Translations under genes and position numbers: made by a program
IMG/VR virus record: IMGVR_UViG_3300044996_000496
Location: 1-64,000 of that record
Reading direction: 5' to 3' (one strand)
DNA: 64,000 nt
Origin: a virus
Part shown: positions 11,924 to 50,354 of the stretch, piece after piece
How positions within the stretch are numbered: the first letter of the stretch is position 1
Layout: every line of letters begins with the position of its first letter
The notes under the pieces: model-generated
What the model was told of the DNA's origin: nothing
Databases searched by the model: none
Seen by the model: only the letters and a program-made list of their open reading frames with translations

Positions 11924-11939
11924 AAAATAGTATATACTA

Positions 11940-11975: not shown

Positions 11976-11988
11976 TAGCTGCTCTACT

Positions 11989-14653: not shown

Positions 14654-14678
14654 TACATTTGTGGAGGATAAAGCGCTG

Positions 14679-19681: not shown

Positions 19682-20074
19682 ATGAGACGACTATTGATCG
19701 CTATGATTTTAATGTTAACACCATTAATGGCTTTCCCGGTGCAGTATGATAAAGATGGCGTGATTCCGTTTGGGGTTGATTTAACATGTAAAACTCCAGG
19801 TAGAACAATGACTGCATTTGAGGTAAAGCCGGTTATACAGCGTGTTTCTGGAGTTTCGGACACTCTGTCTGTGGCTCGTGTAACTGTAAGCAATACGGCA
19901 ACATCTGGTGATTACAGCATAACCATTGCAAGAGGGGAGAGGGTCGCAATAGCATCTAGAATAATTGAAACAGTTGGAGCTATTGAAATTGTTGGAGATT
20001 GGACTCAGTTTTCTGAGTTTGTAGAATATGTTGTGCCAAGTTCTGGCTGCTCGAAGCCGTGGTATAAGGGTTAA
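19682..20074 (+). CDS. Secreted hypothetical protein
   Basis: Signal peptide MRRLLIAMILMLTPLMA; AGGAGG RBS. Confidence 0.65.
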   Translation: MRRLLIAMILMLTPLMAFPVQYDKDGVIPFGVDLTCKTPGRTMTAFEVKPVIQRVSGVSDTLSVARVTVSNTATSGDYSITIARGERVAIASRIIETVGAIEIVGDWTQFSEFVEYVVPSSGCSKPWYKG

Positions 20075-31998: not shown

Positions 31999-32305
31999 TA
32001 GGGGTGAGTTGAATTTATCCGCATATGAGGAGATTATTACAGAGGCTCGTAAGCTGGCTGAGGAAAAGTATAAGGGTTATGGTCCTGATAATATAGGGGC
32101 TTTTGCTGATTTTGGATGTTTAGTCAGGGCAAATGATAAAATACAAAGAATGAAAACAATTTATTTGCGTCGCTTTAATTCAGGAGTATCTGAAGATAAA
32201 GCGTTGGTTGGGGCCGTTCCAGACGAAAAGATAGATGATGATATTAAGGATGCTATTAATTATTTAGTTTATATGTTGATGTGTCGGAGGGGACAGTGGA
32301 TGTAA
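31988..32305 (+). CDS. DUF1599 / nucleotide-modification-associated domain protein
   Basis: K...YG..NI...G.LVR.NDK..R...DE..DD...D..NY. Confidence 0.75.
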   Translation: MPSNRGELNLSAYEEIITEARKLAEEKYKGYGPDNIGAFADFGCLVRANDKIQRMKTIYLRRFNSGVSEDKALVGAVPDEKIDDDIKDAINYLVYMLMCRRGQWM

Positions 32306-33573
32306 ATGTAAGTAGTGTAAAGAATAATAAAATATGTAGAATAATACGCAATTGTTATCTTGAGAAGAATTTGTCTTGTGATATTTTTGTTGCCGGAGAA
32401 TATCTTGTTGGGCAGCTAATTGGAGATAATAAATTAAATGAAATAAAAATAGTTTTTGATGGGTCATTACCTGATGATAAGATTAGACGATTTGTCGAAT
32501 ATGTAATATCTTCGTTGGGATGGGTACATAAGTTTGATGATCATGATTTGTTAAATTTGATGTATTTTGACAAATATTCTGATAATAATGTATTGTTTAG
32601 ATTTGTTGTTGATATTGAAAATGTTGTTTTTATTTTTTATGTTTATAAGAGTTGTAATTTGTTAAATGATGTATACGATAGAGTTGCCGGGGGATTAAGC
32701 AATGATCTAATTTGTTATGATGTTAAATTAGACGTTGGCGTTGGGGTGGCCAGAAGTTGGGAACAGAACATAATTTCTCCAAAGGGCGATTATATATCGT
32801 GGATTAGGGATGATTTTAGTAGAATTATGAAAGTGTTTCGTTATGCTTGTGATTATAATTGTGATTTGTCGTATATGCTAACTGGATTTATTGGACAACT
32901 CGTTGACTCAAAAGATTCTGAGTTTATTAACTATTTTAAGTTTGATAATTTTGCTGCGTATAGGGCAGAATTTATAAAATGCATTATGTCGGACAATGCT
33001 AGTAAAATTTTCACTAGATTGCATGATTGTGGAGTTTTAAAGTATATTCTTCCGCAGGTTTCCATTCTATCAACAATTAAACAAAATAAACCAACAGCAA
33101 ATAATGCATTTATTCACACAATGCAGGTTTTAAAGTTGTGTCCTAGAGATCTTGGGCTTAGAATAGCTGCAATTTTTCATGATGTCGGGAAGTATGAAAC
33201 CAATTCGGCTGTTGATGATAGATTTTATAGACATGAGGTGATTAGCTCAAATAAAGTAATCAAATGGTTTAAATGTACTGGGTTTGGATCGCAAATTATT
33301 GATGGTAATGTTGAGTTTGTTGTTCCAGTTGTTCCAATATTAATTTCTAATCATATGCATATAGGTGGTTTGGTCAAATCTGGTGTAATTACATCAAATG
33401 CGGTCTCAAGACTTCATACTAGGTGCAGAGGTGAGCATTTAAGATCTGTACTGTTAGCAATGTATGATAGACTATGTAGCGTTAAAGAAGAAAATAGGGT
33501 TAATGAGTCAATAGAATATTATAGGTTAATTTTTGAGCTTAACAAAAGGGAGCTTGAGCTTAAACATGGATGA
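32281..33573 (+). CDS. CCA-adding-enzyme-like protein with degenerate nucleotidyltransferase head and intact HD domain
   Basis: IFVAG..L.G...NEIKI replaces GG.VRD...DxD; RDDFSRIMKVFRY (EDxxR-like); HT..V, AAIFHDVGK, FYRHE and NHM retained. Confidence 0.75.
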   Translation: MSEGTVDVNVSSVKNNKICRIIRNCYLEKNLSCDIFVAGEYLVGQLIGDNKLNEIKIVFDGSLPDDKIRRFVEYVISSLGWVHKFDDHDLLNLMYFDKYSDNNVLFRFVVDIENVVFIFYVYKSCNLLNDVYDRVAGGLSNDLICYDVKLDVGVGVARSWEQNIISPKGDYISWIRDDFSRIMKVFRYACDYNCDLSYMLTGFIGQLVDSKDSEFINYFKFDNFAAYRAEFIKCIMSDNASKIFTRLHDCGVLKYILPQVSILSTIKQNKPTANNAFIHTMQVLKLCPRDLGLRIAAIFHDVGKYETNSAVDDRFYRHEVISSNKVIKWFKCTGFGSQIIDGNVEFVVPVVPILISNHMHIGGLVKSGVITSNAVSRLHTRCRGEHLRSVLLAMYDRLCSVKEENRVNESIEYYRLIFELNKRELELKHG

Positions 33574-34579: not shown

Positions 34580-35337
34580 TAGAAAAAAAACTAAAAGTTA
34601 GTCAAAGTGAAATTGATGAGGTTAGAGATAAATTAATTGGTGCCAAGATTGAAAATGATATGACTGAAAATGAAAAAAAAGAAATAATGAATGAAATTGA
34701 TGTAAAAATACAAAGAGCGATAGATGGATGGAATACTGCTCCAAAAGAATTTAAGATGAGATGTATGATTTTGTTTGGTGTTGATGAGAGTTGGCTTCCA
34801 AGGAACAGAAGAACTCATGATCAAACAGAGGTTGATGATATAGATACAAGTTATGATAGGGAAATGTTGTCTGGGCTTACAAATAGGGAAAAGCGTATAT
34901 TTAAACAAAGAGTTGAATCTTATAAAAAGGAATTTGATTTAAATGACTCATCTGATTATGCCATGATACTGCAAATAGTTGCGGATGAAGTTTTGCAGAG
35001 AAGATATATTAGAGACATACTTTTAGAAAAGAAAAATGATGTCAGTAAGTTAATTGATTTATTAAATAAGCGATTATCTTCTAACTTGGAGACTCTTGGT
35101 ATTACTAGAAGTAAGCGTAAAGAACTTCAAGAAGAGCAGGAGGGGCACGTTGCTCAAATATCTGACTCTCTTGACGAGAAGTTAAGAAGCATAGCGAAAA
35201 TTCATAAAGAACATATGGAAGAAGAAGATATGTATATGAAAATGAAAAACAGTAGATCTGGTCCTGTTAATGTTATTCCGTCTATGCAAGAACTTCAGGA
35301 AACAGCTGAAGAGTTTGGGTACGAGGCGAAAAGCTAG
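34576..35337 (+). CDS. Putative terminase small subunit
   Basis: Helical 253-aa protein immediately upstream of TerL; LGITRSKR motif; mainly positional inference. Confidence 0.55.
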   Translation: MIEKKLKVSQSEIDEVRDKLIGAKIENDMTENEKKEIMNEIDVKIQRAIDGWNTAPKEFKMRCMILFGVDESWLPRNRRTHDQTEVDDIDTSYDREMLSGLTNREKRIFKQRVESYKKEFDLNDSSDYAMILQIVADEVLQRRYIRDILLEKKNDVSKLIDLLNKRLSSNLETLGITRSKRKELQEEQEGHVAQISDSLDEKLRSIAKIHKEHMEEEDMYMKMKNSRSGPVNVIPSMQELQETAEEFGYEAKS

Positions 35338-35338
35338 A

Positions 35339-36946
35339 ATGGCAGATAATAGTATAAAATTAATGAAACATGAAAGATATTATTTGACCAACAGTGAGCA
35401 ACTTATTGATTTATATAGAGCGGATCCCGTTATGGCTGCTCATGATTTATTGGGTATTCGTTTAATTTGGTTACAACGTATTGCATTGAGGACAATGTGG
35501 TTTAAGTTGTATGTTGCTTTAAACTGGGGGCGCGGAACCTCAAAAACATTTATTTTGGCATTGTTTTGTGTATTAAAGGCGATGCTGTACCCAGGTATGC
35601 GTATAGGTGTTTTTGCCCCAAGTTTTAGACAGCAGGGATTTATTTTTGATGAAATAGAACGTATGATGTCAAATAGCCCATTTTTGCGTATGTGTGTTAA
35701 GGGCGGGAAAATATCTAGGGGCCAAGGAAGAATTTACATGCAGATAGGAAAGTCTATGATCGAAGCTTTGCCGACCGGACATGACGGCGGGAAGGCCAGG
35801 GGTAGACGTTATGGTGTTGTGGTATGTGATGAGTATGCGCAAATTCTTCCAGATATAATTAAACTTGTTATAAGACCGATGTTGAACATTAAAATTGGTG
35901 GAGTTTCTAACCAGTTTATAGTTGCCTCGTCTGCATTTTATAAATGGAATCATTTTTATGGATTATGGTGTCATTATAAAGTTATGGAGGAGAAGTTTCC
36001 AGAGCAGTATGGTGTTCTTGATTTTGATTATAGAGATATATTAATGACTAAGAATTCTCCGTTTGAAGTTGATACATCGATTATAGATGCACAAAAAAGT
36101 GACATGCCACATGAGCTTTTTTTGATGGAAAATTTGTCTGTGTTTCCAGATGAAAGTGTTGGATACTTCCCAGCAAAGCTTTTGGAGGAGGCCACACCGA
36201 AAAGAACTCCTATTGCAATAGAGCCAAATAAAGGGGATCACGACGGTATTTATACTCTTGGGATTGATTGTGCTCGAACAAAGGGCGGGGACAATTTCTC
36301 TGTTGCTGTTTCTAAGGTAGTCGGTGGCAAAATACACTTGGTTAGGCTTGAGTCAATGAACGGCAAACCATTTCAGGAGATGGTATATCTAATTAGAGTG
36401 CTGCTACGTGATTACCCGATGGCGCGTATATATAATGATTATGGTGGTGGAGGTCAGGCAATAACCGATTTGCTTAATGAGCCGTGGGCCGACTATTCTA
36501 GTGGGAGAAGAGTGGATTATCCGCCAATTTTAGATATAGATGAATATGACGAGTATTCATCATATGAGGGTAATAGGATTCTTAAGCAGTTTAAATTTAG
36601 TAATGATAGTAAATCTGCTATATTTTCATCCTTTAAGGCAGATTTGGAAAATGGTGTGTTTAAGTTTCCACTCGGTGTTTTTAAAGATGATGATCCAGAT
36701 GTAGAGAGAATTGGTCTTGAGATTAAATGTGCAAAATCCGAGTTTATGGTTGTAATGACTGAGCCGACTAGTCATGGATATAGATTTGTTACTCCAGAAA
36801 ATATGAGAGATGATAGGGCGACTTCCATTATTTTATCTCATGCTGCTGCAAGAGATATTATGAAAATAGAGAGAGAGACTGGTGAAGTTGAAGATGTTCC
36901 AATGCCGTCGGTTGGTGTTTGGGTTGGGGATAGAAGTACATTGTAA
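35339..36946 (+). CDS. terL: Terminase large subunit
   Basis: Walker A variant GRGTSKT, APSFRQ, RGRRYGVVVCDE (Walker B), nuclease LGID.AR and DDRATS. Confidence 0.92.
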   Translation: MADNSIKLMKHERYYLTNSEQLIDLYRADPVMAAHDLLGIRLIWLQRIALRTMWFKLYVALNWGRGTSKTFILALFCVLKAMLYPGMRIGVFAPSFRQQGFIFDEIERMMSNSPFLRMCVKGGKISRGQGRIYMQIGKSMIEALPTGHDGGKARGRRYGVVVCDEYAQILPDIIKLVIRPMLNIKIGGVSNQFIVASSAFYKWNHFYGLWCHYKVMEEKFPEQYGVLDFDYRDILMTKNSPFEVDTSIIDAQKSDMPHELFLMENLSVFPDESVGYFPAKLLEEATPKRTPIAIEPNKGDHDGIYTLGIDCARTKGGDNFSVAVSKVVGGKIHLVRLESMNGKPFQEMVYLIRVLLRDYPMARIYNDYGGGGQAITDLLNEPWADYSSGRRVDYPPILDIDEYDEYSSYEGNRILKQFKFSNDSKSAIFSSFKADLENGVFKFPLGVFKDDDPDVERIGLEIKCAKSEFMVVMTEPTSHGYRFVTPENMRDDRATSIILSHAAARDIMKIERETGEVEDVPMPSVGVWVGDRSTL

Positions 36947-36960: not shown

Positions 36961-38637
36961 ATGGAGAGTAAAGTTGGCGCTCGTCCTGACAGTAACCAGG
37001 TTTGCGTTGATAGGCGTAAGCGTGAGGTTAAGTTTGTAGAACAGGTTACTGGACAAAAGGTTGAATATGGTATGAATAGCAGGGACGAGCTTGGTGGTCC
37101 TGTTATTGTTTATTATTCTGGTGATGGTCAAAAACTCGGCTCCAGCAGAGATATGCACGATTCTTCAAAATCGCATGGTGATATTGATCCTGTTGTTGGA
37201 TTTGTAGTTCCAAGAAAACAACAAACTGCTATTAAGTATTTAGACGAGGCTAGGGAGTATAATGATCAAAATGCAACAATAAATAAACAAATGGAATTAT
37301 CCAATAAATTATATTTAAATGAGGGAGTTATAGGAACTGCAATAGATATTTTGGTTGAGTTTGCTGTTACTGAACCATATTGGGAGAATGTAGATAACCA
37401 AAACGCTCTTGAAATATTAAATCAGTGGAAAGATTATTTAAATTACGGGAAACCGAATATAGTTCAGGGAATAGAGGGGTTGAGTCGCGAAATGGCTTTA
37501 GATTGGTTTATTTGTGGCAATGTTTTTCCGTTTGTATCTTGGAGTTCTAAGGCTGGAAGGCAATTTAAGTTAAGAAGAGACAATGTGTCTCTTCCAGATT
37601 CTATATCGCTTTTAAATCCTCTTGCTGTAGAGATTCCAGATGGACCAGTTGAGTTTGGGCAAAAAGTAATTTTTCTTAAATTAAGTGATAAAGTTAGGGA
37701 TGCAATTAAATATAAAGGAAACGATGATATTGAATTAAAAATTATTAGGGATAATATGAGTCAGGAATTGATAAATAGTATAATTAAATCAAAAGATGAT
37801 AAATTGTTTATTCCAATTGATCCAAGATATGTTTGTCACCTAAGGAGAAAGGGAAGAAGCTATCAGCCATATGGCGTTCCGTACTTGACGAGATCATTTG
37901 GCGCAGTTGCCCATAAAAGAAAACTGAAAGCTTTGGACGATGCTACTACAGACGGTTTGATAAATAAAATTACTGTTTTTAAGATTGGTGATAAGGACAA
38001 TCCTAAAACATGGAAGCCAGAGCGTATACGTGCATTTGCTCGCTTGTTATCTAGCCCGACCGCTACAATGTACCTAGTATGGGCGTATGATATTGATAAA
38101 ATAGAGGTTGGGCCTAGTGGAGATGTGCTAAATTTTGACAAGAAATATGAGAACGCAAACAGGGATATCCTTGAGGCGCTCGGGGTGCCGACCACACTTA
38201 TTCTTGGGGCGCAAGGCGGAAACCTGCAGGACATTTGGGTTACTGTTTTGGCACTTCTTGAACGTCTTGAAGATTTTAGAAAAAATGCTGCTATATATTT
38301 TAGCAATATTGGTAGAGAAATTATGATAAATAATGGATTTGGTAATATTTATCCAAAGCTAGAATATGGTCCGGTAATGCTTAGAAATGAAGAAAAGGTT
38401 AAAGATCTTATACTTAAGCTTTATGATAGAGGGTTGTTATCGTTTAAGACAGCCATACGTGATGCTGGTTACAGTTATGAGAAGGAACTAAAGATAAGGA
38501 GAGAAGAGGCCAAAGAAGAGCTTGATAAAGTTTTTATGCGCAGAGATCTGCCATATTCTCCTGCAAAAAATAAACAAGAATTAAATAGCCCAGAAGATGG
38601 GAGACCTAGCGATTCGAGTGATGATGGCGTAAAGTGA
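36961..38637 (+). CDS. Portal protein
   Basis: 558 aa directly after TerL; YGVPYL motif, ILEALGVP..L..G, C-terminal GRP motif. Confidence 0.8.
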   Translation: MESKVGARPDSNQVCVDRRKREVKFVEQVTGQKVEYGMNSRDELGGPVIVYYSGDGQKLGSSRDMHDSSKSHGDIDPVVGFVVPRKQQTAIKYLDEAREYNDQNATINKQMELSNKLYLNEGVIGTAIDILVEFAVTEPYWENVDNQNALEILNQWKDYLNYGKPNIVQGIEGLSREMALDWFICGNVFPFVSWSSKAGRQFKLRRDNVSLPDSISLLNPLAVEIPDGPVEFGQKVIFLKLSDKVRDAIKYKGNDDIELKIIRDNMSQELINSIIKSKDDKLFIPIDPRYVCHLRRKGRSYQPYGVPYLTRSFGAVAHKRKLKALDDATTDGLINKITVFKIGDKDNPKTWKPERIRAFARLLSSPTATMYLVWAYDIDKIEVGPSGDVLNFDKKYENANRDILEALGVPTTLILGAQGGNLQDIWVTVLALLERLEDFRKNAAIYFSNIGREIMINNGFGNIYPKLEYGPVMLRNEEKVKDLILKLYDRGLLSFKTAIRDAGYSYEKELKIRREEAKEELDKVFMRRDLPYSPAKNKQELNSPEDGRPSDSSDDGVK

Positions 38638-38664: not shown

Positions 38665-39042
38665 GTGGAGCGTACAGAAAATAAAAATGATAGTAATGGT
38701 AGATCATTTAGCATTATTGCCGTTATTACAATGTTAGTTGGATTTGCAACTATATGGAATGTGATGAACGCACAAATAAATTCACTTAAGAGTACCATTG
38801 ATGCAATTGGTGTTAAGGCCGAGGCCCACTCATTTGTTGATAGTCACCCAGGTACTAGTGAAAGACTTGGCAGACTGGAAGAAAGATTATCAGCAACGGA
38901 GGCGTCAATTTGTCACACTCAAGATGTAGCCAATGTTAGACACCAGGAGATACAGATTGACACGCAAATGTTATGGAAAAAGGTTTTTGGTATCGATTAT
39001 CCGTCCAGGGAGTATTGGCCGTTTAAAGGGGGATCAAAATGA
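38665..39042 (+). CDS. Single-TM coiled-coil membrane protein
   Basis: N-terminal TM followed by heptad repeats. Confidence 0.65.
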   Translation: MERTENKNDSNGRSFSIIAVITMLVGFATIWNVMNAQINSLKSTIDAIGVKAEAHSFVDSHPGTSERLGRLEERLSATEASICHTQDVANVRHQEIQIDTQMLWKKVFGIDYPSREYWPFKGGSK

Positions 39043-39146
39043 TTTTGTCATTTGTGTTGGTAGCGTTGGCGATTTTGTTTGCGTTTGAACCCAGGCTCGT
39101 TACCAACCATTTATATCATTTGGCTGATCGAATTTTTGGTAAGTAA
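39039..39146 (+). CDS. Small hydrophobic protein (35 aa)
   Basis: Manual translation MILSFVLVALAILFAFEPRLVTNHLYHLADRIFGK; GGGGGA RBS; ATGA overlap. Confidence 0.5.
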   Translation: MILSFVLVALAILFAFEPRLVTNHLYHLADRIFGK

Positions 39147-39171: not shown

Positions 39172-39966
39172 ATGTTTAAGAGAGTTGCTATAGCTATTAT
39201 TTTATGTTTTGTTATGAGTTCTAATGTTTTTGCGGACGCTCTTTCAAACTATTATTTGCAACTTATTTATGAAGAGTTAAATGGAACTGCTCCATTGGGG
39301 CGCGGTGAAGCTGTAACTGACTCTATGCTCCTAGAGTGGATTCTTGATTCTTTGGAGGTTATAACTGTCCAAGATTCTACTCAAATTTCTCTATATAATA
39401 CTTTATTTGAGATTAAGGATTCTTTAGTATCTAAGTTAGATTCGGTAATTTCGTGTAATTTGATTTTGGCGGATAAGCAGGACTCATCTTTAGGCTGGCT
39501 TGGTTCTATAGATTCAACGGCCAATGATATGGAGGTTACTTTGAATGCAATACAGGCTTCTATCGATGATAGTGTTATTGCCAAACTGAATCTTATCTTT
39601 AGGGAACTTGAACCCTCTGATACGATGGCGATATTCCAATATCCAAGTGCATCTCTTGAATTGAACGATTCTTTTACTGTTATTTTAGCGAATACGGATA
39701 GTAGCGTGTATTATCCTTCAAAGTTTTGGGGATATGATCTAGTAAAATATGGAACAAATGATGGACCAATTAGGGCCATTTTACATTTTACAAGTGGTCA
39801 TATTGATACTTTGGATATTCCATTTACTGGCCTGAGTCTTGGTGCGCAGGGGAGTTTTCTTCCTTCTGCCGTTTTTTACCCAATGGAATTGGATTCGATT
39901 CGTATTAAGTGTACGGAGGCACTTGATTACTTGTCTATATTTTGGTTTGCTAAACATACTCAGTAA
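39172..39966 (+). CDS. Secreted protein A, rich in D-(S/T) sequons; paralogue of 41756..42526
   Basis: Signal peptide ending VFA|D; AAGGAGG RBS; 13 of 21 Asp followed by S/T (manual count). Confidence 0.8.
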   Translation: MFKRVAIAIILCFVMSSNVFADALSNYYLQLIYEELNGTAPLGRGEAVTDSMLLEWILDSLEVITVQDSTQISLYNTLFEIKDSLVSKLDSVISCNLILADKQDSSLGWLGSIDSTANDMEVTLNAIQASIDDSVIAKLNLIFRELEPSDTMAIFQYPSASLELNDSFTVILANTDSSVYYPSKFWGYDLVKYGTNDGPIRAILHFTSGHIDTLDIPFTGLSLGAQGSFLPSAVFYPMELDSIRIKCTEALDYLSIFWFAKHTQ

Positions 39967-39972
39967 TGGAGT

Positions 39973-40089
39973 GTGAAAGTGGGCGACGACGAAGGTTGGG
40001 ACATTTTCACCGTATGTTTTAGAAATTTTGTTATTTTTGTTGTTTGTATTTTTATTGCCGTTGTCGTTATTTCTTATGTTTGTAAATAA
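39973..40089 (+). CDS. Small single-TM protein
   Basis: Manual translation MKVGDDEGWDIFTVCFRNFVIFVVCIFIAVVVISYVCK. Confidence 0.45.
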   Translation: MKVGDDEGWDIFTVCFRNFVIFVVCIFIAVVVISYVCK

Positions 40090-40102
40090 GGAGTGGTTTG
40101 AC

Positions 40103-40948
40103 ATGAGGGTTTTGAGTTTATTTTTAATTTTATTGTTTAGTTCTTTAAGTTTTGCCGATACGGCTCGACCTTTGATAAGCACGAGTTTTGAAGATGGTTT
40201 TGCCGGATTGGCCGGATTAGGGGCTGATACGTTAGAGTGGGGTATAGTGTTATACAATGGGGACGGCGCGAGCTGTTATATTGATTCAACGGTTTCTTAT
40301 TTGGGTTCTAAATCTTTAGCGGTTACTGGAGATTCTGGAGCAGCTGGCATAAGGTGCTGGGCTGAGATTTTCTTTCCTATGAGCAAATGGTTACACGTTA
40401 GGTATATGGCTCGTTATGATCGGCCATTTGTTGGTCTTGGAGAGCATCCATCTGGATTGATACACTATTGGAATGACGTTAAAGATAACCCAATTGGTGA
40501 TGGTAAAAAAATGTGCAGAATTGGTTTACAATCCTCAAGTGTAACCCTTATGTCGTGCGGACTGGAAGACACACTTCGAGTGTTGCCGTCAGATTCGTTG
40601 GCGCTTTATTTTGTTACACGCGATGATACATGTGGTTTGAATTCGCAGTTACCGACTAGGTGTTATGGAATTATCAAAAGGGATGAATGGCATCGTTATG
40701 ACATAATAATGAAAAATGAGTCAAGTGGATATATTAAGCGTTATGTTGATGGCAAATTGGTTTATTCTGAATCAGCAGTATTGGATACATCTGCGGCGAA
40801 TTATTTGCATCTTGGAATTTGGAATTCTTTTGGTACTCAGATTGGTGAAGGTTCTTATTATTATGATTGTTTATTAGTTGATACTTCATATAGTATTCCG
40901 TGTCGTGCGGCAGAGTTGGGGCTTGATTCGCTTCCGATGAGAAGGTAG
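40103..40948 (+). CDS. Secreted protein B, ConA/LamG-like beta-sandwich (lectin or lyase-like), D-(S/T)-rich
   Basis: Signal ending SFA|D; SFEDG, G.KSL, EWHRYDI...G.I..YVDGKLV, YYDCL.V; ATG 40103 after AAGGAG. Confidence 0.7.
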   Translation: MRVLSLFLILLFSSLSFADTARPLISTSFEDGFAGLAGLGADTLEWGIVLYNGDGASCYIDSTVSYLGSKSLAVTGDSGAAGIRCWAEIFFPMSKWLHVRYMARYDRPFVGLGEHPSGLIHYWNDVKDNPIGDGKKMCRIGLQSSSVTLMSCGLEDTLRVLPSDSLALYFVTRDDTCGLNSQLPTRCYGIIKRDEWHRYDIIMKNESSGYIKRYVDGKLVYSESAVLDTSAANYLHLGIWNSFGTQIGEGSYYYDCLLVDTSYSIPCRAAELGLDSLPMRR

Positions 40949-40956
40949 GTGTTGAT

Positions 40957-41739
40957 GTGAAGAAAATTATTGTTGGGATTATATGTTTAACTTTTATTTC
41001 AAGTTTAGTTTTTCCGTCCTCTCGGATTTTTTATGCTGGCATGGAAACTGGAGATTTTAGTGAATTTTCTAGCACAAGAACGAACGGGACTGCAACATTA
41101 ACAAATACTGGGGTATATCAGTTTTGCGGAACAAAGAGTGCAATGTCATCTGTCTCATCTGGTGTTAGTAGTAGAGCATTTGCAAACAAAGGAATTACGT
41201 CATCCAGTTATTTGCATATCAAGACAAGATTTTGCAATCAGTGGGATTCTGGTGGCTCAAACCCTAAAACAATTTTTGGATGTTTTAAAGTTAGTGACGG
41301 AACAAATTCAAGATTGACGGTTCGTTTAAAAGATGCAACTCCGAGTAATTATAATAGTAACTTTACATTCAATGTTGCGGTAAAAGATTCTGCGGCTCAT
41401 GCAAATATTTCGACCGACATTGCTACTCCATTGGTTACTGACAGTGTATGGTTTGATTTTGATGTTTTTATTTCAAAGGGTGTATCAGATGGAGAAATTT
41501 CTCTTTGGGTAAACGGAGTTTTACTGCTATCGCTTGATACACTACATACAAGTGGTGCCATGCCAGATAGTATTTCTTGGGGATGCATAGCAGGTTGGAC
41601 CACTGGAGATATTGGTACTGTTTGTTTTGATGAAATTGTTATGGACACGATGAGTTGTGGCCCTCCGTGTGGTTTGGTTTTTAGAAATGGAATTAGACAG
41701 GTTTGGTCTGGGATGAAGAGTTGGTTTTCATGGCTATAG
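40957..41739 (+). CDS. Secreted protein B', ConA/LamG-like beta-sandwich, D-(S/T)-rich
   Basis: Signal peptide; GMETGDFSEF, GTKSA, WF.F.V...DGEISLWVNG, FDEIVM. Confidence 0.7.
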   Translation: MKKIIVGIICLTFISSLVFPSSRIFYAGMETGDFSEFSSTRTNGTATLTNTGVYQFCGTKSAMSSVSSGVSSRAFANKGITSSSYLHIKTRFCNQWDSGGSNPKTIFGCFKVSDGTNSRLTVRLKDATPSNYNSNFTFNVAVKDSAAHANISTDIATPLVTDSVWFDFDVFISKGVSDGEISLWVNGVLLLSLDTLHTSGAMPDSISWGCIAGWTTGDIGTVCFDEIVMDTMSCGPPCGLVFRNGIRQVWSGMKSWFSWL

Positions 41740-41755
41740 ATTGGGGGAGTGTTTC

Positions 41756-42526
41756 TTGAAAAAATTATTTAGTGTTCTATTTTTCTTACTTGTTGTTTTT
41801 CAATCGTTTGGATTCTGCGATCAGGATTTTGATGCAATTTCTAATTATTATTTAAATGAAATTCACAAAATATATATGGGAACAGGAGTGGCGAGGACAG
41901 ATTCTCTACTGTATGAGCTGATCCGCAGTGAATTGGGAAAACAGAAGCTTCAGGATACAACACAAATTAAGGTTTATGATTTAGCCGATACAATATTAAC
42001 TATATTTGTAACAAAAGCGGACTCTATGATTTTGTGTAATCTTGATTATGGTATATTACAAGACAGTATAAACGCTAAATTATACGGAATTGATGGATCT
42101 TTTACTGCAGCAGAGGAAACACTAAATTTTATTCAAAATGTAATTGATGACAGTGTTTCTTCAAAACTTAATTTAATTGAGTATAACATTGCTCCGAAAG
42201 ATACGTGTCTTATAAGGCTTTTCTCTTCTCTTGCTGCGGATTCTACGTTTCTTATTTATTACCCAGGATATCCGTCTTTTCGGTGGAGTTATAATTTTGT
42301 GAGATATACCACAAATGATGGTCCAATTAGGTTTTTGCTATATTTTACTAGTGGGCGTGCCGATACTTTAGACGCTCCGTTTACTGCCCTAAATATTGGT
42401 GCTTTGGGTGGATTTTTACCACAACCCGTTGTTTTTTCGATGGAGCTTGATTCTATTCGAGTTACTGCTACTGGGGCGTTGAGTTACTTGGAGGTTATTT
42501 GGTACGCGAAACATACTTTGCAATAA
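41756..42526 (+). CDS. Secreted protein A', paralogue of 39172..39966
   Basis: TTG start after GGGGGAG; shares DA.SNYYL, IDDSV..KLNLI, TNDGPIR, FTSG..DTLD.PFT, MELDSIR and W.AKHT. Confidence 0.8.
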   Translation: MKKLFSVLFFLLVVFQSFGFCDQDFDAISNYYLNEIHKIYMGTGVARTDSLLYELIRSELGKQKLQDTTQIKVYDLADTILTIFVTKADSMILCNLDYGILQDSINAKLYGIDGSFTAAEETLNFIQNVIDDSVSSKLNLIEYNIAPKDTCLIRLFSSLAADSTFLIYYPGYPSFRWSYNFVRYTTNDGPIRFLLYFTSGRADTLDAPFTALNIGALGGFLPQPVVFSMELDSIRVTATGALSYLEVIWYAKHTLQ

Positions 42527-42595: not shown

Positions 42596-44389
42596 GTGGA
42601 AAACAGTTTGTCCGTAGGCACAGTAAGCGCACTTGACGGCACACTAGTTGTTGATGATTTAATTATTGCGTATGTTAAGAAAACTCCCAATAAAAATGAA
42701 TGGTGTATTTATTCAAAAAGCGGAAAAAAGATGGGATGTTATAAAACTAAGGATGAGGCTGTTGAGAGACTTAGACAAATAGAATATTTTAAACATAATA
42801 AAGCAAATGAATTTATTGATGTTGATGATGTTATTGCGTCATTTGTAATTTATAATTTAGTTTTAAATGGTAGTGAAATTGATGTTTGTGATTATTTTGA
42901 TGAATATTTGTGTGGATGTGATGAGTTAGCAGAGGGTGTTGATGTTACCGAGAATTATTTGCGTTTTAGGCAAACGGAACCAGATAAATATGATTCTTTC
43001 AGAATTATTAACATAAGTGTTAAACAAGGTATTAAAGCCGTTTTGGGGATAATTAATGGACCACCAAAAAAAACAGAAATACAATCTTATTTGTTTGATA
43101 AGAGTAAGTGGACGACCAAGGATGCGACAAAGTGGATTAAAGATCATGGCAAGAAAGCATCAGCGTCAGCTAATTCCAATATGTTAAGAATAAAGTTTAA
43201 TGTATCTGATGTGAAAATTGAACAGCCTGATGCTGTGGCGATTGCTAACATAGACTCATTTTTTGATGAAATTGATAAAAATAGACAAAAAGATTTAATG
43301 TATATAGCATTTAAGCTTGTTCACGAGGGCACGAATGCAAATTTAGATCATTTTTTGTATGATGAGTTAAAGTCTGCGCAAAAAACGCCTATAAATAAAC
43401 CATTGAATTGGCTGCATTGGGAACCAAATATTGGTGTTATTTATGACGCGACTTTAGTTGACGCTACTGATATTGAAGGGGCATATATTGAGGCCCATGC
43501 AGTAGTTTGGAAGTATAAGTATCGCGATTATGCTATGGAAATCGAAAACCGTCATAGCGAGGGAGAGCTTTTCTTTAGCATGGAAGTATGGTATTCGCAG
43601 TCAGAGTGCCCAATTTGTAAGAAAACATACAGTGCTAGGGAAGAAGCTGCTGGCAAAACCTGTGAACATTTGGCTAGTAGATTTTACGAAAGAGCGGAAG
43701 ACCCTAACATGGCAACATGTTACCGCATACTTCGAGGTCTTACATTTGGAGGTGCTGCTGTAGTTGATCTCCCGGCTGATAAGGGAGCGGAGGCTTTGGC
43801 GGTTGCCTCCAAAAACAAAGCTGATAGTGATAAGGAGGTGTTTGATGCTATGAAGCGACTTGATGATGGGACGTTAGTTTATACTGAAGCAGAGATAGAA
43901 GAGCTTAAGGATAAGGTTAGAGCAAGCGTCCGCGAGGAATTGAGTAACGAGGGTGCCCATGCTAAGGAGTTGGAGGATCGCGATAAACAGATAGCTGATC
44001 TGCAAAAGACAATTGAGGGCTTAAACACAGAGTTAGCCGAGGCACAGAAGAAGCTGGATGAAACAATAAAAGAATTTGATGAGCATAAGTCTAGTATAGA
44101 GAAAGAAAAGCTTGTAGCGAAAAGAACGGCTAGTTTGATAGAGGCAGGATATCAGTTTAGTCAAGATGAAAAGGAAAAAGAAGCTGTTATTGCCTCGTTT
44201 GTTGCTATGGATGAGAATGCATTTGAATTTGTATTAAAGACAATTAAGGATAAGAATGAGGAAGTGGCAGCAGCTACTGCAAGTAGAAAAACTGGTGGAG
44301 TTCCAGTTGGTTCTACGGTAACTTCCTCGGGCGGAACAACGCTTGGGCAAAAGATGAGCAAGATTAAGGATTTATTGACAAAGGTTTAA
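42596..44389 (+). CDS. Prohead protease / scaffold fusion with extra N-terminal domains
   Basis: Position before capsid genes; H.GTN.N.D.F, KPLN..H, FSMEV..ECPIC, F.G.AVV..PAD; C-terminal coiled coil. Confidence 0.75.
   Translation: MENSLSVGTVSALDGTLVVDDLIIAYVKKTPNKNEWCIYSKSGKKMGCYKTKDEAVERLRQIEYFKHNKANEFIDVDDVIASFVIYNLVLNGSEIDVCDYFDEYLCGCDELAEGVDVTENYLRFRQTEPDKYDSFRIINISVKQGIKAVLGIINGPPKKTEIQSYLFDKSKWTTKDATKWIKDHGKKASASANSNMLRIKFNVSDVKIEQPDAVAIANIDSFFDEIDKNRQKDLMYIAFKLVHEGTNANLDHFLYDELKSAQKTPINKPLNWLHWEPNIGVIYDATLVDATDIEGAYIEAHAVVWKYKYRDYAMEIENRHSEGELFFSMEVWYSQSECPICKKTYSAREEAAGKTCEHLASRFYERAEDPNMATCYRILRGLTFGGAAVVDLPADKGAEALAVASKNKADSDKEVFDAMKRLDDGTLVYTEAEIEELKDKVRASVREELSNEGAHAKELEDRDKQIADLQKTIEGLNTELAEAQKKLDETIKEFDEHKSSIEKEKLVAKRTASLIEAGYQFSQDEKEKEAVIASFVAMDENAFEFVLKTIKDKNEEVAAATASRKTGGVPVGSTVTSSGGTTLGQKMSKIKDLLTKV
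43850..44389 (+). CDS. Nested in-frame scaffolding protein (internal start)
   Basis: Perfect SD TAAGGAGGTG at 43831-43840 before in-frame ATG 43850, at the start of the coiled coil. Confidence 0.55.
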   Translation: MKRLDDGTLVYTEAEIEELKDKVRASVREELSNEGAHAKELEDRDKQIADLQKTIEGLNTELAEAQKKLDETIKEFDEHKSSIEKEKLVAKRTASLIEAGYQFSQDEKEKEAVIASFVAMDENAFEFVLKTIKDKNEEVAAATASRKTGGVPVGSTVTSSGGTTLGQKMSKIKDLLTKV

Positions 44390-45146: not shown

Positions 45147-46064
45147 GTGGATATAGAAAAATTAACTTACAGAGAAATTGATATTGAATTACAAAAGGCA
45201 TTGGCGTCTATAAACTGGAGGGATCCGCAAGAACGTTCGGCATTTGCTGAGACTATTGTGGAGGTTGTTAAGTATGATGTTGAAAGAGACAATCTAATAG
45301 ATTTGTTTGCCGAACAGGAGGTTATTCCAGTTGGAGCCTCGAAAGAATGGGTTGTTCGTAAGGGCATAAAAGCTTACATTCATGAGCCTGGTTCATATGC
45401 TCCAAGATCAACGATTACTAACATTACCAACACAATCCAGTCTGAAATGGCATCGGTCCATCCTCAGATGGAGCTTGGCCAGCTAGAGTCCGGTCGCTAT
45501 GGAACCGTTGCTGATATACGAAAAATGTGCAAGGATGAGCTTTTGGGAATGAAGTATGGCACAATTTGGAACGTTATGATAGCGTCAATTGCTTCTAGTG
45601 ATAGCAACTATCAAACGTATTCTGCAACAAATGATAATTTGGTTACAAAGAAAAACGTACTGGTTTCTGGTTTGAAGTGGGTAAATGATATAGGTCAAGG
45701 GGCTAAGGCCATAGTTGGTAGATATTCCCTTGTTTCTGACATTACTGAATTTGATGGATATTCAGAAACGTGGAAAGAGCAGGTAGACAGAGAGGGATTC
45801 CTTGGTGCATTTAGAGGAGTTCCTATTTTGTCACTTAAGCAATACACCAATGGTGATGGCATTAGGATGATTAATGCTGATAACGTATTTATTTCTTCAA
45901 ATGGAACGGCCAAAATTGCAGTAACCCAGGAATTGCGCGTTGAGGAAGATAAGGATATTGATACATTGTTCTGGCATATGCATATGTACGAGAAGTACGG
46001 ATGTGCAGTGTTCTTCCCTGAGCGAAATTACAGAATTGCTGTTACAAGCAGTCCTTGGGGTTAG
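45147..46064 (+). CDS. Major capsid protein (HK97-fold)
   Basis: 305 aa; canonical position; strong RBS; G..G.FRGVPI..L and YEKYG.AV..P motifs. Confidence 0.8.
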   Translation: MDIEKLTYREIDIELQKALASINWRDPQERSAFAETIVEVVKYDVERDNLIDLFAEQEVIPVGASKEWVVRKGIKAYIHEPGSYAPRSTITNITNTIQSEMASVHPQMELGQLESGRYGTVADIRKMCKDELLGMKYGTIWNVMIASIASSDSNYQTYSATNDNLVTKKNVLVSGLKWVNDIGQGAKAIVGRYSLVSDITEFDGYSETWKEQVDREGFLGAFRGVPILSLKQYTNGDGIRMINADNVFISSNGTAKIAVTQELRVEEDKDIDTLFWHMHMYEKYGCAVFFPERNYRIAVTSSPWG

Positions 46065-46123: not shown

Positions 46124-48520
46124 GTGATGAATGGTCAAATTGAATTTAACAAGGATCTTATAACGCTTCTTTGGTATGGAGATTCTCCGTGTGTATCAAC
46201 TGGATTTGGCATAGTCAGTCAGAGTGTATTGTTTAGATTATGGCAAACTGGTAAATATAGAATAGTTGCCGTTGGAATTAATGATCGAGGCGAAGACCAC
46301 CCATTAAAAAAGCTCCCAAATTTCCATGTTATGCCCTGTCCTTATCTTGACAGGGATCCATATGGTTATCAAGTGTTGCCGGAAGCGATTAAGCGATTTA
46401 AACCAGATGTCATTTTTGCTTTAAATGACATTTGGTTACTTGCTGGCGATAGTGGTAAGGGGAATCTAAATTGGTGGGAGAGTTTGTTGCGCCAGCATGC
46501 CCCAGGTGTGCCGTGGGCAATATACTTCCCAATTGATGGTCGTCCTCTTGCTAAGGAGTGGGGGCGCGTTATGCGCTCCTCGTGGTCGCCTGTTGTATAC
46601 AGTAAATACGGATATGATGTTATTAAAGATGAAATACCTGATGTTAATCCTGAGTTGATTTATCATGGAGTTGATCTTGAGACGTTTAGGCCGATAGGTG
46701 ATAAAGAAAAAATACTTTTTGTTAGAAGACATTTGGGTATTCCAGAAGATCATAAACTTATTGGTGTAGTTGGCAGAAATCAGCCAAGAAAGAACATACC
46801 GCTTGCTCTTAGGATATTTAAGTATTTTAAGGATGGGTATAAAAAATGTAAAAATTGTGGTGGATATGCATCATTACATGAAAGATCGTGTGAGTTGTGT
46901 GGTATGAGTGATTTTGATAAAGTATATGATGGATTTAACAAAGTTTCTATGTATTTGCATATGAACTTAAGAGATGGATTTGGATTTAACATTCCTAAGG
47001 TAATAGCTGATGAGAAGGTAAGTGGAATATCTTTTAATCCCGATCATCATATTGCTCATGGCGTTCCGGCTGAGGTTTTGAATTTACTATATAATTCTTT
47101 TGATGTTATGTTTTTGCCAACTATGAGTGAAGGATTTTGTCTTCCAATTTTGGAGTCAATGGCCGCTGGTACACCAGTGATAGCAACAGCCGGAACTGCC
47201 CAAAAAGAATTACTTGTGGATGGTGGCGGAATTCCAATTATTCCACAAGATTATATTATTTTAACCGATGCTGCAAATGTAAGACGACATATTATGCGTA
47301 TACCGGACGCAGTAAATGCTCTTGAAAAGATTCTAACTGATCAAAAATATCATGATGAGTTGGCAATAAAAGGGCTTAGATACGCAGCCTCTCGCGGGTG
47401 GGATGTGTCGGCTCAGCAGTTTGATGAGTTAGTTACTAAAATGTTGAATAAGCGTATATCAGTTGTTGATTCTTTCAATGAAACTAAAGAACCAAAAATT
47501 TTATTCTATAGACCAATAGGTTCTGCTGGAGATATATTAATTACAACCCCAGTAATACACGCTGTTCGTGAATTGTATAAGGATTCAGATATAGTGTATG
47601 CTGTTCCTGAAAAATATATAGAGTTATTAGATGGGAACGATGATATAAATAAAGTTATTCCATGTGATTTTATGTGGGATGGCAGTAGAAGAAAGGGCGC
47701 TGCACAGTCAACCAAAATAGCTAAAGTTGATTTATTTGGAGTCGAGGATAGAATAGAGTCTGCTTTAGCTCCAAATGTTATTTTTAGTAGACAAGAGATT
47801 TATTCTAATCATTGCAAGGTAAAGCCAGAGAGTATGAAGTCGGTGTACAATATTTCTGCACAAGAAAAAGAGTGGGCAGATGCTCTAATTCCGCAGAACG
47901 GTGAGTACAAAATAGGTATAAAGGTTGACACCGAAGAGCCGTATTTGGCTATTAGTGCTGGAGAATGGATAAAATTAATTGAGTTTTTCGTAAAACGTAA
48001 TGATGAGAAAATTTATATTTTCGTACAAGATAGAGCGCATTTCCCAGTTGATGAGTGGATGAGGCTTGTTCCAGATGGAGTTACTGTTTTTTGTTTTGAT
48101 AAAGAAGAAAAACCATACAGAAAAATGATAGCAGCAATGAATAATATGAATATGATCGTTTCTTGTGATGGAAGTTTTATTCACTTTGCTGGGATGCTTG
48201 GGAAACCGCTTGTTGCAATTTATGGACCAAATGATTGGCGACAAAAGTTAAAACATTATAAGAATGTGTTTCCGGTATTTAACTCAATGTGTCAAATGAT
48301 GCCTTGCTGGAGAAATCAGAATTCTCCATGTAGATTAACTGGTCAACAAGAGAGTGTGTGTTTAAGGGAAATGAAGGCCGGGATGATAGTATCCGCTATA
48401 ATTAAGGCAAAAAAAGAATCGCTAATATCTGAAAATAAATCAGTAGCAAAAACACAAGAAGAGATTCAAAGAAAAACAATATTAAGGGAAAAAAGAAAGC
48501 AAAGAAGGAACAGAAGATAA
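46124..48520 (+). CDS. Bifunctional glycosyltransferase: GT4 domain (with Zn-ribbon insert) fused to a GT9-like domain
   Basis: DSP...TGFG, IYHGVD..TF, GRNQPRKN, EGFCLPILESMAAGTPVI; then GDILITTPVI and DGSFIHFAG.LGKP.VAIYGP. Confidence 0.88.
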   Translation: MMNGQIEFNKDLITLLWYGDSPCVSTGFGIVSQSVLFRLWQTGKYRIVAVGINDRGEDHPLKKLPNFHVMPCPYLDRDPYGYQVLPEAIKRFKPDVIFALNDIWLLAGDSGKGNLNWWESLLRQHAPGVPWAIYFPIDGRPLAKEWGRVMRSSWSPVVYSKYGYDVIKDEIPDVNPELIYHGVDLETFRPIGDKEKILFVRRHLGIPEDHKLIGVVGRNQPRKNIPLALRIFKYFKDGYKKCKNCGGYASLHERSCELCGMSDFDKVYDGFNKVSMYLHMNLRDGFGFNIPKVIADEKVSGISFNPDHHIAHGVPAEVLNLLYNSFDVMFLPTMSEGFCLPILESMAAGTPVIATAGTAQKELLVDGGGIPIIPQDYIILTDAANVRRHIMRIPDAVNALEKILTDQKYHDELAIKGLRYAASRGWDVSAQQFDELVTKMLNKRISVVDSFNETKEPKILFYRPIGSAGDILITTPVIHAVRELYKDSDIVYAVPEKYIELLDGNDDINKVIPCDFMWDGSRRKGAAQSTKIAKVDLFGVEDRIESALAPNVIFSRQEIYSNHCKVKPESMKSVYNISAQEKEWADALIPQNGEYKIGIKVDTEEPYLAISAGEWIKLIEFFVKRNDEKIYIFVQDRAHFPVDEWMRLVPDGVTVFCFDKEEKPYRKMIAAMNNMNMIVSCDGSFIHFAGMLGKPLVAIYGPNDWRQKLKHYKNVFPVFNSMCQMMPCWRNQNSPCRLTGQQESVCLREMKAGMIVSAIIKAKKESLISENKSVAKTQEEIQRKTILREKRKQRRNRR

Positions 48521-49629
48521 TGAAAAAGCTAAATGTATTTTTCCCAGTGCCAAGAATTTATGGTCCATCGTTGCACGAGACAAAGAATAAGTTATTTGAA
48601 TACGGTAAAGATTTTGCAAAAGAGGCTGACGATTGGATAGATGCTGATGTTATAGTTTTACAATTAATAGGAGACCCGGACAGAAAAAATTTAGTTCATC
48701 CGTCTGAGGTAGTTTTTAGTGATTTAATTAAAGTAATTATGGATAATATGAATCATATTCCAACTATTGTTTTTCCGTTGTGCAATATAAACAATACCAG
48801 CAATTGGAGATATTTATTTGAAAATGCTTCTATGATTTACAGTTATTTAGATGTTGATTATCAAATTAAGCACGTTGATGGGCAATTATTACCATTTGTG
48901 TTTAATAAGTCAGTTGTTGTGCGAGAGCCTCTTGGGGTGGAACCTGGAGATTTTTTTAGAGAAGACGATATGCAAAAACAATATTTAATTTATACATTTG
49001 GATTTGATAAAGAGACAGAATCAATAGACATAATTTTTGATGCAACAGTATTATTTAACTCAACCAGAGAAAATTTGGGTCTTCCGATATTGAAGATGTT
49101 GCATAGCGGGAGGGACTTTGGTTTTGATAGTAAGTATTATCAATTTGAGACGCCTGCTCCACAAAATCAAAAGGGTATAGTTAGAGCTAGGTACAATAGT
49201 TCTTACTTTGCCAATGCGCTTAGAGCAGACGCTTGGGTTGAGGGTGGATTTGAGATGGCTAACATAGAGGCTCCGTTGTGTGGATGTCAACCTATAACTT
49301 ATAATTTTGAGTGTTATCAGCATTGGTTTAAGGGTATTTCGGAATTTGTTAATGTTCCACTAAACACAGACCCAAGAAGTTTATCTAATAGAAAACACGT
49401 TGTTGAGCAATTGGTTAATATTTTTAATCGTGGAACTAATGGAAGAGATAAAATCTATAAGTATACTGTTTCAGTTAATGATAGTGATGATGAAGATGAA
49501 AAAACTAAAGAAATTGGAAGTAAATTAGATTTGTTTGACGATAAAAGAAACATGATTTATGAAAGATTTTTGTGGGAAAATGTTGCAAGTACATTTTGGA
49601 AAGAGGTGTTGAATAAATGTGCAAAATAA
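48520..49629 (+). CDS. Divergent GT-B (GT4-like) glycosyltransferase
   Basis: PLGV...F, GGFEMANIEA.LCGC.PI, F.WE.VA..FW. Confidence 0.7.
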   Translation: MKKLNVFFPVPRIYGPSLHETKNKLFEYGKDFAKEADDWIDADVIVLQLIGDPDRKNLVHPSEVVFSDLIKVIMDNMNHIPTIVFPLCNINNTSNWRYLFENASMIYSYLDVDYQIKHVDGQLLPFVFNKSVVVREPLGVEPGDFFREDDMQKQYLIYTFGFDKETESIDIIFDATVLFNSTRENLGLPILKMLHSGRDFGFDSKYYQFETPAPQNQKGIVRARYNSSYFANALRADAWVEGGFEMANIEAPLCGCQPITYNFECYQHWFKGISEFVNVPLNTDPRSLSNRKHVVEQLVNIFNRGTNGRDKIYKYTVSVNDSDDEDEKTKEIGSKLDLFDDKRNMIYERFLWENVASTFWKEVLNKCAK

Positions 49630-50354
49630 GTATTGTTACTGTTTTAAGAAATTCAGCTCATATATTTGATAAGTTTATTGATTGTATTGCCAGTAACATG
49701 GGTTTAGATTACGAATTAATCTTAGTTGATAATCATAGTAGAAAAGATTGTGCTAGTTTTTATGATTATGTGTTGTGTAAGCATTCATTGCAAGATAATG
49801 TTTTATTTATTAATAATGATAAAAATTTAATGTTTACAAGAGCCGTAAACCAAGGATTGGAAAAATCCAGTGGACAATACATATGGTTGTTAAATCCAGA
49901 TGTATATATCGAAAAGGATGTTGATAAAAAATCTGTTGATTTTTTTGTTAATCATTTAAATATTGGTATTGCTGGATATAAACTTGTTAAAGTTGATGGA
50001 TTTATTGAGCATGCCGGAATATGGGAAGAGGGTGGCGATCATAGGGGGCGTGGAGAGTTAGACGGTGCCGATAAGTATAATACTCCAGAGTGTTGTAGGT
50101 GGGTTACCTTTGGCGCTGCCATGTTTACTCGTGATCTGTATATTAAGTTAGGAACATTGGATGATAAAATATATCCACATTTTGGATCAGACAGAGAGTA
50201 TTGTGATAGGGCTAAAAAAAGTGGATACGATGTGTGGTATTTGCCGTATAAGTTAATACATGTTTATGGTAACTCTTGTAGACCTTATGTTTTTGATGAT
50301 TTACCTGATTATCTTATGGAAAACGGGAAACCAGCAAGAAAAATATGGAAGTAG
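49617..50354 (+). CDS. Glycosyltransferase family 2
   Basis: ISIV, ELILVDNHS, NQG, LLNPD, SDREYC.RAK.SG. Confidence 0.9.
   Translation: MCKISIVTVLRNSAHIFDKFIDCIASNMGLDYELILVDNHSRKDCASFYDYVLCKHSLQDNVLFINNDKNLMFTRAVNQGLEKSSGQYIWLLNPDVYIEKDVDKKSVDFFVNHLNIGIAGYKLVKVDGFIEHAGIWEEGGDHRGRGELDGADKYNTPECCRWVTFGAAMFTRDLYIKLGTLDDKIYPHFGSDREYCDRAKKSGYDVWYLPYKLIHVYGNSCRPYVFDDLPDYLMENGKPARKIWK

Follow-up and report, generated by a model that had tools for sequence, protein, structure and literature searches.

Four predicted exported proteins dense in D-(S/T) sequons within the head module of a lake-water phage: candidate acceptors for host O-glycosylation

The virus record IMGVR_UViG_3300044996_000496 is linear, 87,578 bp long and an estimated 61% complete, and its positions 1 to 64,000 form the stretch of DNA analysed here (the window). 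In it, four consecutive genes, which we call A, B, B' and A', lie between the portal gene and a probable prohead protease gene, and their predicted products combine leaders of the exported type with a dense load of the sequon D-[ST]-[AILVMT], which is that of the general O-glycosylation system of Bacteroidota. The cassette and its immediate surroundings are as follows.

36961-38637, plus strand: portal, the upstream flank of the cassette (phrog_2739, E 4.7e-17; 46% identical to the portal of contig L003, described below).
38665-39042, plus strand: protein of 125 amino acids (aa) with one N-proximal transmembrane segment (SFSIIAVITMLVGFATIW) and a weak phrog_1863 match (E 0.0013); it possibly belongs to the cassette.
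39039-39146, plus strand: putative gene, a hydrophobic mini open reading frame (ORF) of 35 aa (MILSFVLVALAILFAF...) that overlaps the preceding stop and stands behind GGGGG.
39172-39966, plus strand: A, exported-type protein of 264 aa, with the Shine-Dalgarno (SD) site AAGGAGG and a predicted leader at residues 1-21 (VFA|D).
40103-40948, plus strand: B, exported-type ConA-like protein of 281 aa, from an ATG behind AAGGAG, with a predicted leader at residues 1-18 (SFA|D); its longest frame has a TTG start at 40028.
40957-41739, plus strand: B', exported-type protein of 260 aa, distantly paralogous to B, whose C-terminus has a CGPPCGL motif and ends in an aromatic tail.
41756-42526, plus strand: A', paralogue of A; the likelier start, TTG at 41756 behind GGGGGAG, gives 256 aa and corresponds to database protein P0002, and the longest frame opens at 41741 (261 aa).
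42596-44389, plus strand: protein of 597 aa, probable prohead protease or scaffold and the downstream flank (phrog_16389, function unknown, E 2.7e-16; weak matches to scaffold phrog_73, E 0.0097, protease phrog_18299, E 0.04, and Pfam Phage_GPO, E 0.0054).

The assignment of all four products to an exported-type set within the late head module is supported by both leaders and position, in agreement with the first-pass annotation of this DNA, which had claimed signal peptides on the four ORFs and a place among the late head genes. Leaders were judged by a rule-based check (n-region charge, h-region, small residues at -3 and -1): each N-terminus has an n-region charge of +1 or +2 and an uncharged h-region of 16-18 residues, and the rule gives cleavage candidates in three of them (VFA|D, SFA|D and GFC|D); it yields no site in B', for which PSS|R was read by eye. 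A lipobox is absent from A, B, B' and A', the leader of A' ending in FGFC and the others in xFA. Promoter-like and terminator-like sites between 38000 and 46500 are no more numerous than in shuffled sequence, which suggests that the four genes are transcribed with the late head genes. As for the flanks named in that annotation, the portal is well matched, but the identity of the prohead protease is weak (the protease family matches at E 0.04). The stretch is present in seven sequencing runs from seven studies, each labelled as lake water metagenome; six of the runs may represent the source sample, and no RNA run is among the seven.

Asp is followed by Ser or Thr at 13 of 21 positions in A, 10 of 21 in B, 6 of 15 in B' and 10 of 19 in A', a recount identical to the earlier one. 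The full sequon occurs 10 times in A (1.6 expected), 6 times in B (1.2), 5 times in B' (1.3) and 9 times in A' (1.2). In 20,000 composition-preserving shuffles of each protein, the fraction reaching the observed count was 0 for A, 0.001 for B, 0.007 for B' and 0 for A'; for the dipeptide D[ST] alone, it was 0, 0.00025, 0.12 and 0.00005, respectively. The four proteins hold ranks 1-4 in sequon enrichment, both among the 85 plus-strand ORFs of at least 80 aa in the window and among 96 plus-strand ORFs in the whole record, and the remaining 81 ORFs of the window, when pooled, contain 42 sequons against 48.1 expected. The excess of the full sequon, for which the first-pass annotation had proposed such a composition-shuffled check, is thus real in all four. 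Two trivial origins were considered and dismissed: (i), a heptad-locked structural repeat in A, since its sites are irregularly spaced (9, 9, 15, 7, 14, 10, 19... residues) and fit no fixed repeat; (ii), an origin at the DNA level, since the dipeptide is written by 12 different hexamers here (GAT-TCT being the commonest) and by 8 in a relative of 65% G+C (GAC-ACG being the commonest), the enrichment being therefore a signal at the protein level.

A shares 47% identity with A' (114/242, E 1e-63), and the two found a new family. A profile built from the two and run against 1.84 billion representative proteins (E <= 0.001) retrieved 12 proteins, namely A, A', nine further homologues of 143-303 aa, all from metagenomes or viral contigs, and one coiled-coil protein of 1442 aa (P0010). 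The latter was excluded from the family alignment and the family counts, because its match is confined to 39 coiled-coil columns and it carries 2 sequons against 4.5 expected. No Pfam, PHROG or PDB-sequence relative of the A family was found; a word-indexed search of 5.8 billion proteins returned A itself only, tblastn with A, B and B' against 50,697 phage records gave no match, and neither did the A family against a genome collection. The family is built of a conserved C-terminal domain of ~110 aa (TNDGP...GAQGSFLP...MELDSIR) behind a variable N-terminal region. The sequon-dense N-terminal part of A is predicted helical at low confidence by an AlphaFold2 model from a two-sequence alignment, which we used solely as a rough outline of secondary structure, given its predicted local distance difference test (pLDDT) score of 35 and predicted template-modelling (pTM) score of 0.26; the helical-stalk shape ascribed earlier to two of the proteins is not supported beyond this outline. 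A look-up of A in the ESM Atlas gave scores of 0.83 at most with template-modelling (TM) scores below 0.5, leads at best.

The sequon is a property of the whole A family. All nine homologues are enriched (observed/expected 7/1.0, 6/0.8, 3/0.5, 3/0.6, 14/2.4, 7/0.9, 6/0.7, 12/1.7 and 12/2.0), the two shortest weakly so (3 vs 0.5 and 3 vs 0.6), and none lacks the motif; homologues without it would have counted against the idea as first put forward, and this check does not refute it. Family members carry 3-14 sequons each, most of them 6-14, in about 140-300 residues. Leaders are found in eight of the nine, the exception being P0005, on a contig of 1.5 kb; overall, 10 of 11 homologues checked have one, again with P0005 as the only one without. 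When the 11 A-family proteins are pooled, D[ST] is observed 104 times against 29.5 expected (3.5x), whereas the control dipeptides E[ST], [ST]D and N[ST] stand at 0.94x, 0.85x and 0.69x. The residue at +2 is one of A, I, L, V, M or T at 88 of 103 A-family sites (85%, against a background of 45%), and the putative acceptor is Ser at 63 sites and Thr at 40. Cytoplasmic proteins encoded on the same contigs contain sequons at expectation. Between A and A', 8 of the 13 sites of A align exactly with D-[ST] and 2 others lie 1-3 residues out of register; the positional conservation claimed earlier thus stands for QDST/QDTT, but KDSL/ADTI is offset by three residues. The accompanying claim that Ser and Thr swap between the two paralogues comes down to one exactly aligned site, and the interchange is clearer across the wider family, as in the alignment column of D104, where six sequences continue with Ser, three with Thr and one with Val.

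B and B' share no similarity detectable by BLASTP, but they align by hhalign (92%, E 6.8e-7, 210 columns), and we read them as distant ConA-like paralogues akin to PF14099. This family, Polysacc_lyase, is one that we take to be a ConA-like jelly roll that includes heparin lyase I and glucuronan lyase. B matches PF14099 with E 9.3e-7 and 29.4 bits against a gathering cut-off of 29.9, and B' matches it under the cut-off (E 0.0082, 16.5 bits); P0014, an orthologue of B at 75% identity, reaches 32.5 bits and passes. No PF14099 match was obtained for P0016, an orthologue of B', or for the B-B' fusion described below, and no PDB sequence match was found. The label 'lectin-like' given to the pair at first reading is therefore fair, both being ConA-like. 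The C-terminus of B' (41650-41739) and that of the fusion (11620-11716 of its contig) both carry a C-x-P-P-C-G-L motif and, after it, a tail rich in aromatic residues (WFSWL / GMWW), which could be a sorting or anchoring signal.

The cassette is not confined to this phage. Two other contigs place it among head genes.

L002 (= L001, L004): viral contig of 24 kb with 65% G+C, ordered as terminase, portal (phrog_2662), protease (phrog_80), major capsid protein, small ORF, the A-like gene P0007, B-B' fusion, two unknowns and head-tail adaptor (phrog_442).
L003: contig of 3.2 kb with 35% G+C, ordered as portal (46% identical to that of the window), cupin-like ORF, small protein and A-like gene.

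In the former, whose portal family differs from that of the window, P0007 lies directly 5' of a gene for a leader-bearing protein of 465 aa, of which residues 5-232 match B (E 9e-14) and residues 236-451 match B' (E 1e-12), including the C-x-P-P-C-G-L tail; B and B' therefore work together, if the fusion is a guide. The A-like protein of this contig has 14 sequons against 2.4 expected, and 13 other proteins are at or under expectation. In the latter, the small protein (103 aa) has a hydrophobic C-terminal stretch (VVLSAIVAGIISFITAYII) and occupies the same position as the 125-aa protein of the window, with no similarity detected between the two (E 0.18). For each of P0003 (A-like), P0014 (B) and P0016 (B', 84% identical), 6 contigs are known, the longest of which measures 128,076 bp in all three cases; P0016 is absent from IMG/VR, and an alignment search with B' led back to L002 and nothing further. 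Scans with the portal turned up no prophage or viral relative. Because a phage of 65% G+C with a different type of portal carries an A-like gene and a B-B' fusion among its head genes, A-B-B' reads as a mobile late cassette that is passed on whole among phages whose portals differ, and all its known contexts (window, L003 and L002) lie inside head genes. The synteny search suggested by the first-pass annotation thus recovers A-B-B' in one relative and an A-like gene after the portal in another; the mirror order A-B-B'-A' does not hold up as a conserved feature, since the high-G+C relative has a single A-like gene followed by the fusion, and the second A copy appears particular to this phage as far as is visible.

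The motif has a known reader in other bacteria. According to PMC12871550, the residue modified in Bacteroidota O-glycosylation is almost always preceded by Asp, Glu not being tolerated in B. fragilis, the residue after the modified Ser or Thr is preferentially hydrophobic, and non-cytoplasmic proteins alone are modified; the same review describes the motif as the sole sequence rule known for bacterial O-glycosylation and the transferase as still undiscovered. We propose, with a probability of roughly 0.45 that covers the explanation as a whole, that the four proteins are Sec-exported and O-glycosylated by a motif-directed host system of this type. After export and leader cleavage, a host oligosaccharyltransferase of the Bacteroidota kind would O-glycosylate the proteins at their sequons, and the A proteins would become densely coated with glycans. 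The host might belong to another lineage equipped with such a system, perhaps the Fibrobacterota. The glycosylated A proteins and the carbohydrate-binding or lyase-like B/B' pair would then act in the envelope late in infection, where they might bind or cut surface polysaccharide, thus aiding release and keeping progeny off debris, or else mask the receptor. Function is the weakest step of this explanation. The ConA-like, lyase-family character of the B/B' pair points to surface polysaccharide as the target, and expression late in infection suggests a part in release, in masking the receptor or in a head decoration that matures externally.

The other exported proteins of the phage bear on whether the host reads the motif. 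These four proteins (10622-11437, 11989-12435 on the minus strand, 14661-15062 and 19682-20074) together have Ser or Thr after only 1 of 41 Asp residues against 5.7 expected (P 0.016), possibly a sign of motif avoidance; as had been noted earlier, the glycoside hydrolase GH12 (10622-11437) and the 11989-12435 protein have none (0/20 and 0/10). The leader-bearing virion proteins of Cellulophaga phage phi18:3, whose host is a genuine member of the Bacteroidota, are likewise short of sequons (3 vs 9.8 expected, P 0.012). Exported phage proteins that are either crowded with the motif or short of it are to be expected where the host reads it. A likely lysis or exit corner, distant from the head module (window 10622-12435), holds three genes.

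10622-11437: GH12 lipoprotein (lipobox LSGC; Pfam E 2e-14).
Within 10622-12435: lysozyme-like protein (phrog_1259, E 1.8e-21).
11989-12435, minus strand: leader-bearing protein of 148 aa.

D[ST] sequons are absent from all three.

A number of observations weigh against glycosylation in the form proposed above. The record, estimated to be 61% complete, yielded no transferase or flippase, nor any Wzy_C-like or PMT_2-like gene or multi-pass membrane protein. The signal is also uneven, the bare dipeptide being not significantly enriched in B' (P 0.12) and the B-B' fusion having 4 sequons against 1.8 expected (P 0.11). As for the lyase-like fold, B falls 0.5 bits under the PF14099 cut-off, and the matches of B and P0014 are partial, covering profile positions 138-207 of 210. 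The sites of the A family lie in a hydrophobic context (V at -3, L/T/A at -1, V/I at +4), and six alignment columns retain D-[ST] across most members. Finally, translation and export signals do not fit the obvious host. Of the 60 ORFs of at least 150 aa here, 27 have a 5-mer SD match between -20 and -4 relative to the longest start, against ~7% at random positions, and the cleavage sites read in A, B, B' and A' expose D, D, R and D at +1 and never Gln.

These last two points, together with the finding of the cassette in a 65%-G+C phage with SD-like starts as a third line, speak indirectly against the Bacteroidota host implied by the first-pass annotation. By the same test, SD matches are found in 21 of 33 ORFs of Clostridium phage Amboise, in 3 of 33 of Bacteroides phage crAss001 and in 0 of 23 of Flavobacterium phage 11b; late-gene sites in the window are AAGGAGG, GGGGG and similar, and GTG or TTG serves as start codon in 31 of 75 long ORFs. 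Listed gene starts of L002 have GGAGG-like sites; its SD count (8/44) was discarded because many of its long ORFs are spurious frames in 65%-G+C DNA. In PMC3155529, the genomes of Bacteroidetes and Chlorobi are described as having no detectable SD signal and Fibrobacteres as keeping a weak one. Among the homologues, Gln at +1 is seen in P0016 only, and only possibly; by comparison, more than 99% of Bacteroidetes species expose Gln at cleavage in about half or more of their substrates, a rule that does not extend to the whole Fibrobacteres-Chlorobi-Bacteroidetes (FCB) group (both from PMC5837995). Because the phage uses SD sites and its leaders do not follow the Gln rule, the host is probably a lineage other than classical Bacteroidia. 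The one further phylum reported as enriched in the motif is the Fibrobacterota, and a host of the Fibrobacterota type would reconcile the motif with the host signals. The record offers few other indications: no tRNA genes were found, the best match of the portal is in a Clostridium phage at 23% identity, and ThyX has its best phage matches in Thermus and roseobacter phages, which is uninformative on the host.

The hydrophobic site contexts and the six conserved columns also keep a structural role for the motif in contention. The proteins would then be exported and not glycosylated, D-(S/T)-hydrophobic being a structural or functional element (the surface of an amphipathic helix or strand, or a ligand site) that matches the sequon by coincidence. 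Host signals unlike those of Bacteroidia would fit such a role, and so would the fact that, by eye, the counts of P0007, P0011 and P0012 arise in part from repeated Cys-containing segments, where sites may not be independent. We nevertheless consider it rather unlikely, because sequons are dense also in N-terminal regions that cannot be aligned between A subfamilies, because the enrichment is found in helix-like and strand-like segments alike and in the unrelated B fold (2.1x), because Glu is no substitute for Asp and the +2 preference fits the published sequon at 85% of sites, and because the other exported proteins of the phage avoid the dipeptide.

Export and glycosylation might also serve the virion itself. 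The cassette products would then be head decorations or head fibres of the virion that complete their maturation outside the cytoplasm and attach to capsids no earlier than lysis, A forming a glycan-coated stalk bound to the capsid via its conserved C-terminal domain and B/B' forming lectin tips; this differs from our preferred explanation in the final location alone. Its appeal is that the three unrelated contexts (portal to protease in the window, after the portal in L003, capsid to adaptor in L002) are typical of minor head or decoration genes, and that a precedent exists in Cellulophaga phage phi18:3 (NC_021794; 3892-9584 of L013), whose gp085-gp087, of 547-785 aa, are annotated as virion proteins from tandem mass spectrometry (MS/MS) and have leader-like starts (...YS|Q, ...SA|Q and ...NA|Q, with Gln at +1 in all three). 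These three proteins, however, are depleted in sequons (3 vs 9.8 expected, P 0.012; 1 each against 2.9-3.7), and the cassette has no similarity to any of the 50,697 phage records or any PHROG family. Moreover, we know of no route by which exported proteins are added to the head of a tailed phage, and it is mainly for this reason that we rank action in the envelope slightly above incorporation into virions, which we regard as unlikely.

A still broader scheme, which we mention as a long shot, would have motif-directed O-glycosylation operate also in SD-using hosts of low and high G+C (Fibrobacterota or other members of the FCB group), where unrelated tailed phages would exploit it through a mobile late cassette of sequon-saturated acceptors and a ConA-like pair, which would come together outside the cytoplasm as a head decoration or exit complex with a glycan coat, the large set of soluble glycosyltransferases and the rare-sugar pathway of this phage remodelling the lipid-linked glycan destined for its own exported proteins. 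Lastly, that the hydrophobic N-termini are uncleaved anchors that hold cytoplasmic assembly factors at the inner membrane while heads are built, on the model of the membrane-associated prohead initiation of T4, is highly improbable: the genes do adjoin the portal gene and a small membrane protein, but in nearly all family members the segments resemble cleaved Sec leaders in charge, length and placing of small residues (VFA|D, SFA|D, AFA|D, AQA|D, VLA|D, AWA|A), the positive n-regions would place the bulk of each protein outward anyway, and the motif would be left unexplained.

The rest of the head module brackets the cassette on both sides.

35270-36946, plus strand: large terminase (phrog_2, E 3.7e-21).
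Between the 597-aa protein and the major capsid gene: protein of 216 aa.
45147-46064: major capsid protein (phrog_16565, function unknown, E 7e-25; phrog_2522, major head protein, E 6.9e-5).
46124-50354: three glycosyltransferase genes, directly 3' of the capsid gene.

One of these glycosyltransferases beside the capsid gene has 798 aa and matches Glycos_transf_1 (E 5.8e-15) and, below threshold, Glyco_transf_9 (21 bits, cut-off 22); another is a GT2 enzyme (E 3.5e-14). Mycobacteriophages with glycosyltransferases beside their capsid genes reportedly glycosylate their own virions, a finding ascribed to Freeman et al. in 2023. Elsewhere, the window encodes an RNA ligase (6096-6842, E 9.8e-20), a DHH/DHHA1 phosphoesterase (16631-17758), ThyX (17755-18516, E 6.5e-60) and a CCA-enzyme-like protein with an HD domain (32281-33573). 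The record has ~35% G+C, with nearly all its genes on the plus strand, and positions 1-4000 of the window stand at 46% G+C against about 35% elsewhere.

Four things are new here, namely the A family, the conservation of A-B-B' as a cassette that also has a fused variant, the testing of motif specificity across the family and the mismatch between motif and host signals; a full-text literature search found reviews and glycoproteome papers only, and no paper linking the motif to phage proteins. If the proposed glycosylation is true, the A family would provide a compact natural reporter substrate for the motif-directed O-glycosylation system and, with hosts that may lie outside the classical Bacteroidia, the reach and origin of this system would become directly testable. 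It would also mean that tailed phages route late proteins encoded in the head module via the export and glycosylation machinery of their host, a routing absent from standard models of virion assembly and phage release.

Comparison with known systems sets the cassette apart from several of them. Lysis cassettes, made of holin, endolysin and spanins, are a poor parallel: none of the four proteins has a lipobox, and a lysozyme-like gene and a lipoprotein are found at 10.6-12.4 kb. The phi18:3 proteins gp085-gp087 resemble the cassette products in that they come from a tailed phage, bear Sec-type leaders and are encoded in a structural region, but they have no sequence similarity to the cassette, follow the Gln +1 rule and are sequon-poor. 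With PF14099 Polysacc_lyase, the likeness lies in the B orthologue P0014, which exceeds the curated cut-off, and the difference in coverage, since the matches of B and P0014 are limited to roughly the final 70 of 210 profile positions. The closest parallel, drawn from sequence alone, is with the substrates of Bacteroidota O-glycosylation. These differ in that the cassette is phage-encoded within a head module, with a sequon density far above what is typical and with phage translation signals and leader cleavage sites that are not Bacteroidia-like; the likeness nevertheless extends to leaders of the extracytoplasmic type by rule-based check, to the same three-residue motif with both Ser and Thr as putative acceptors, to an Asp that is not replaced by Glu, and to a hydrophobic residue or Thr at +2.

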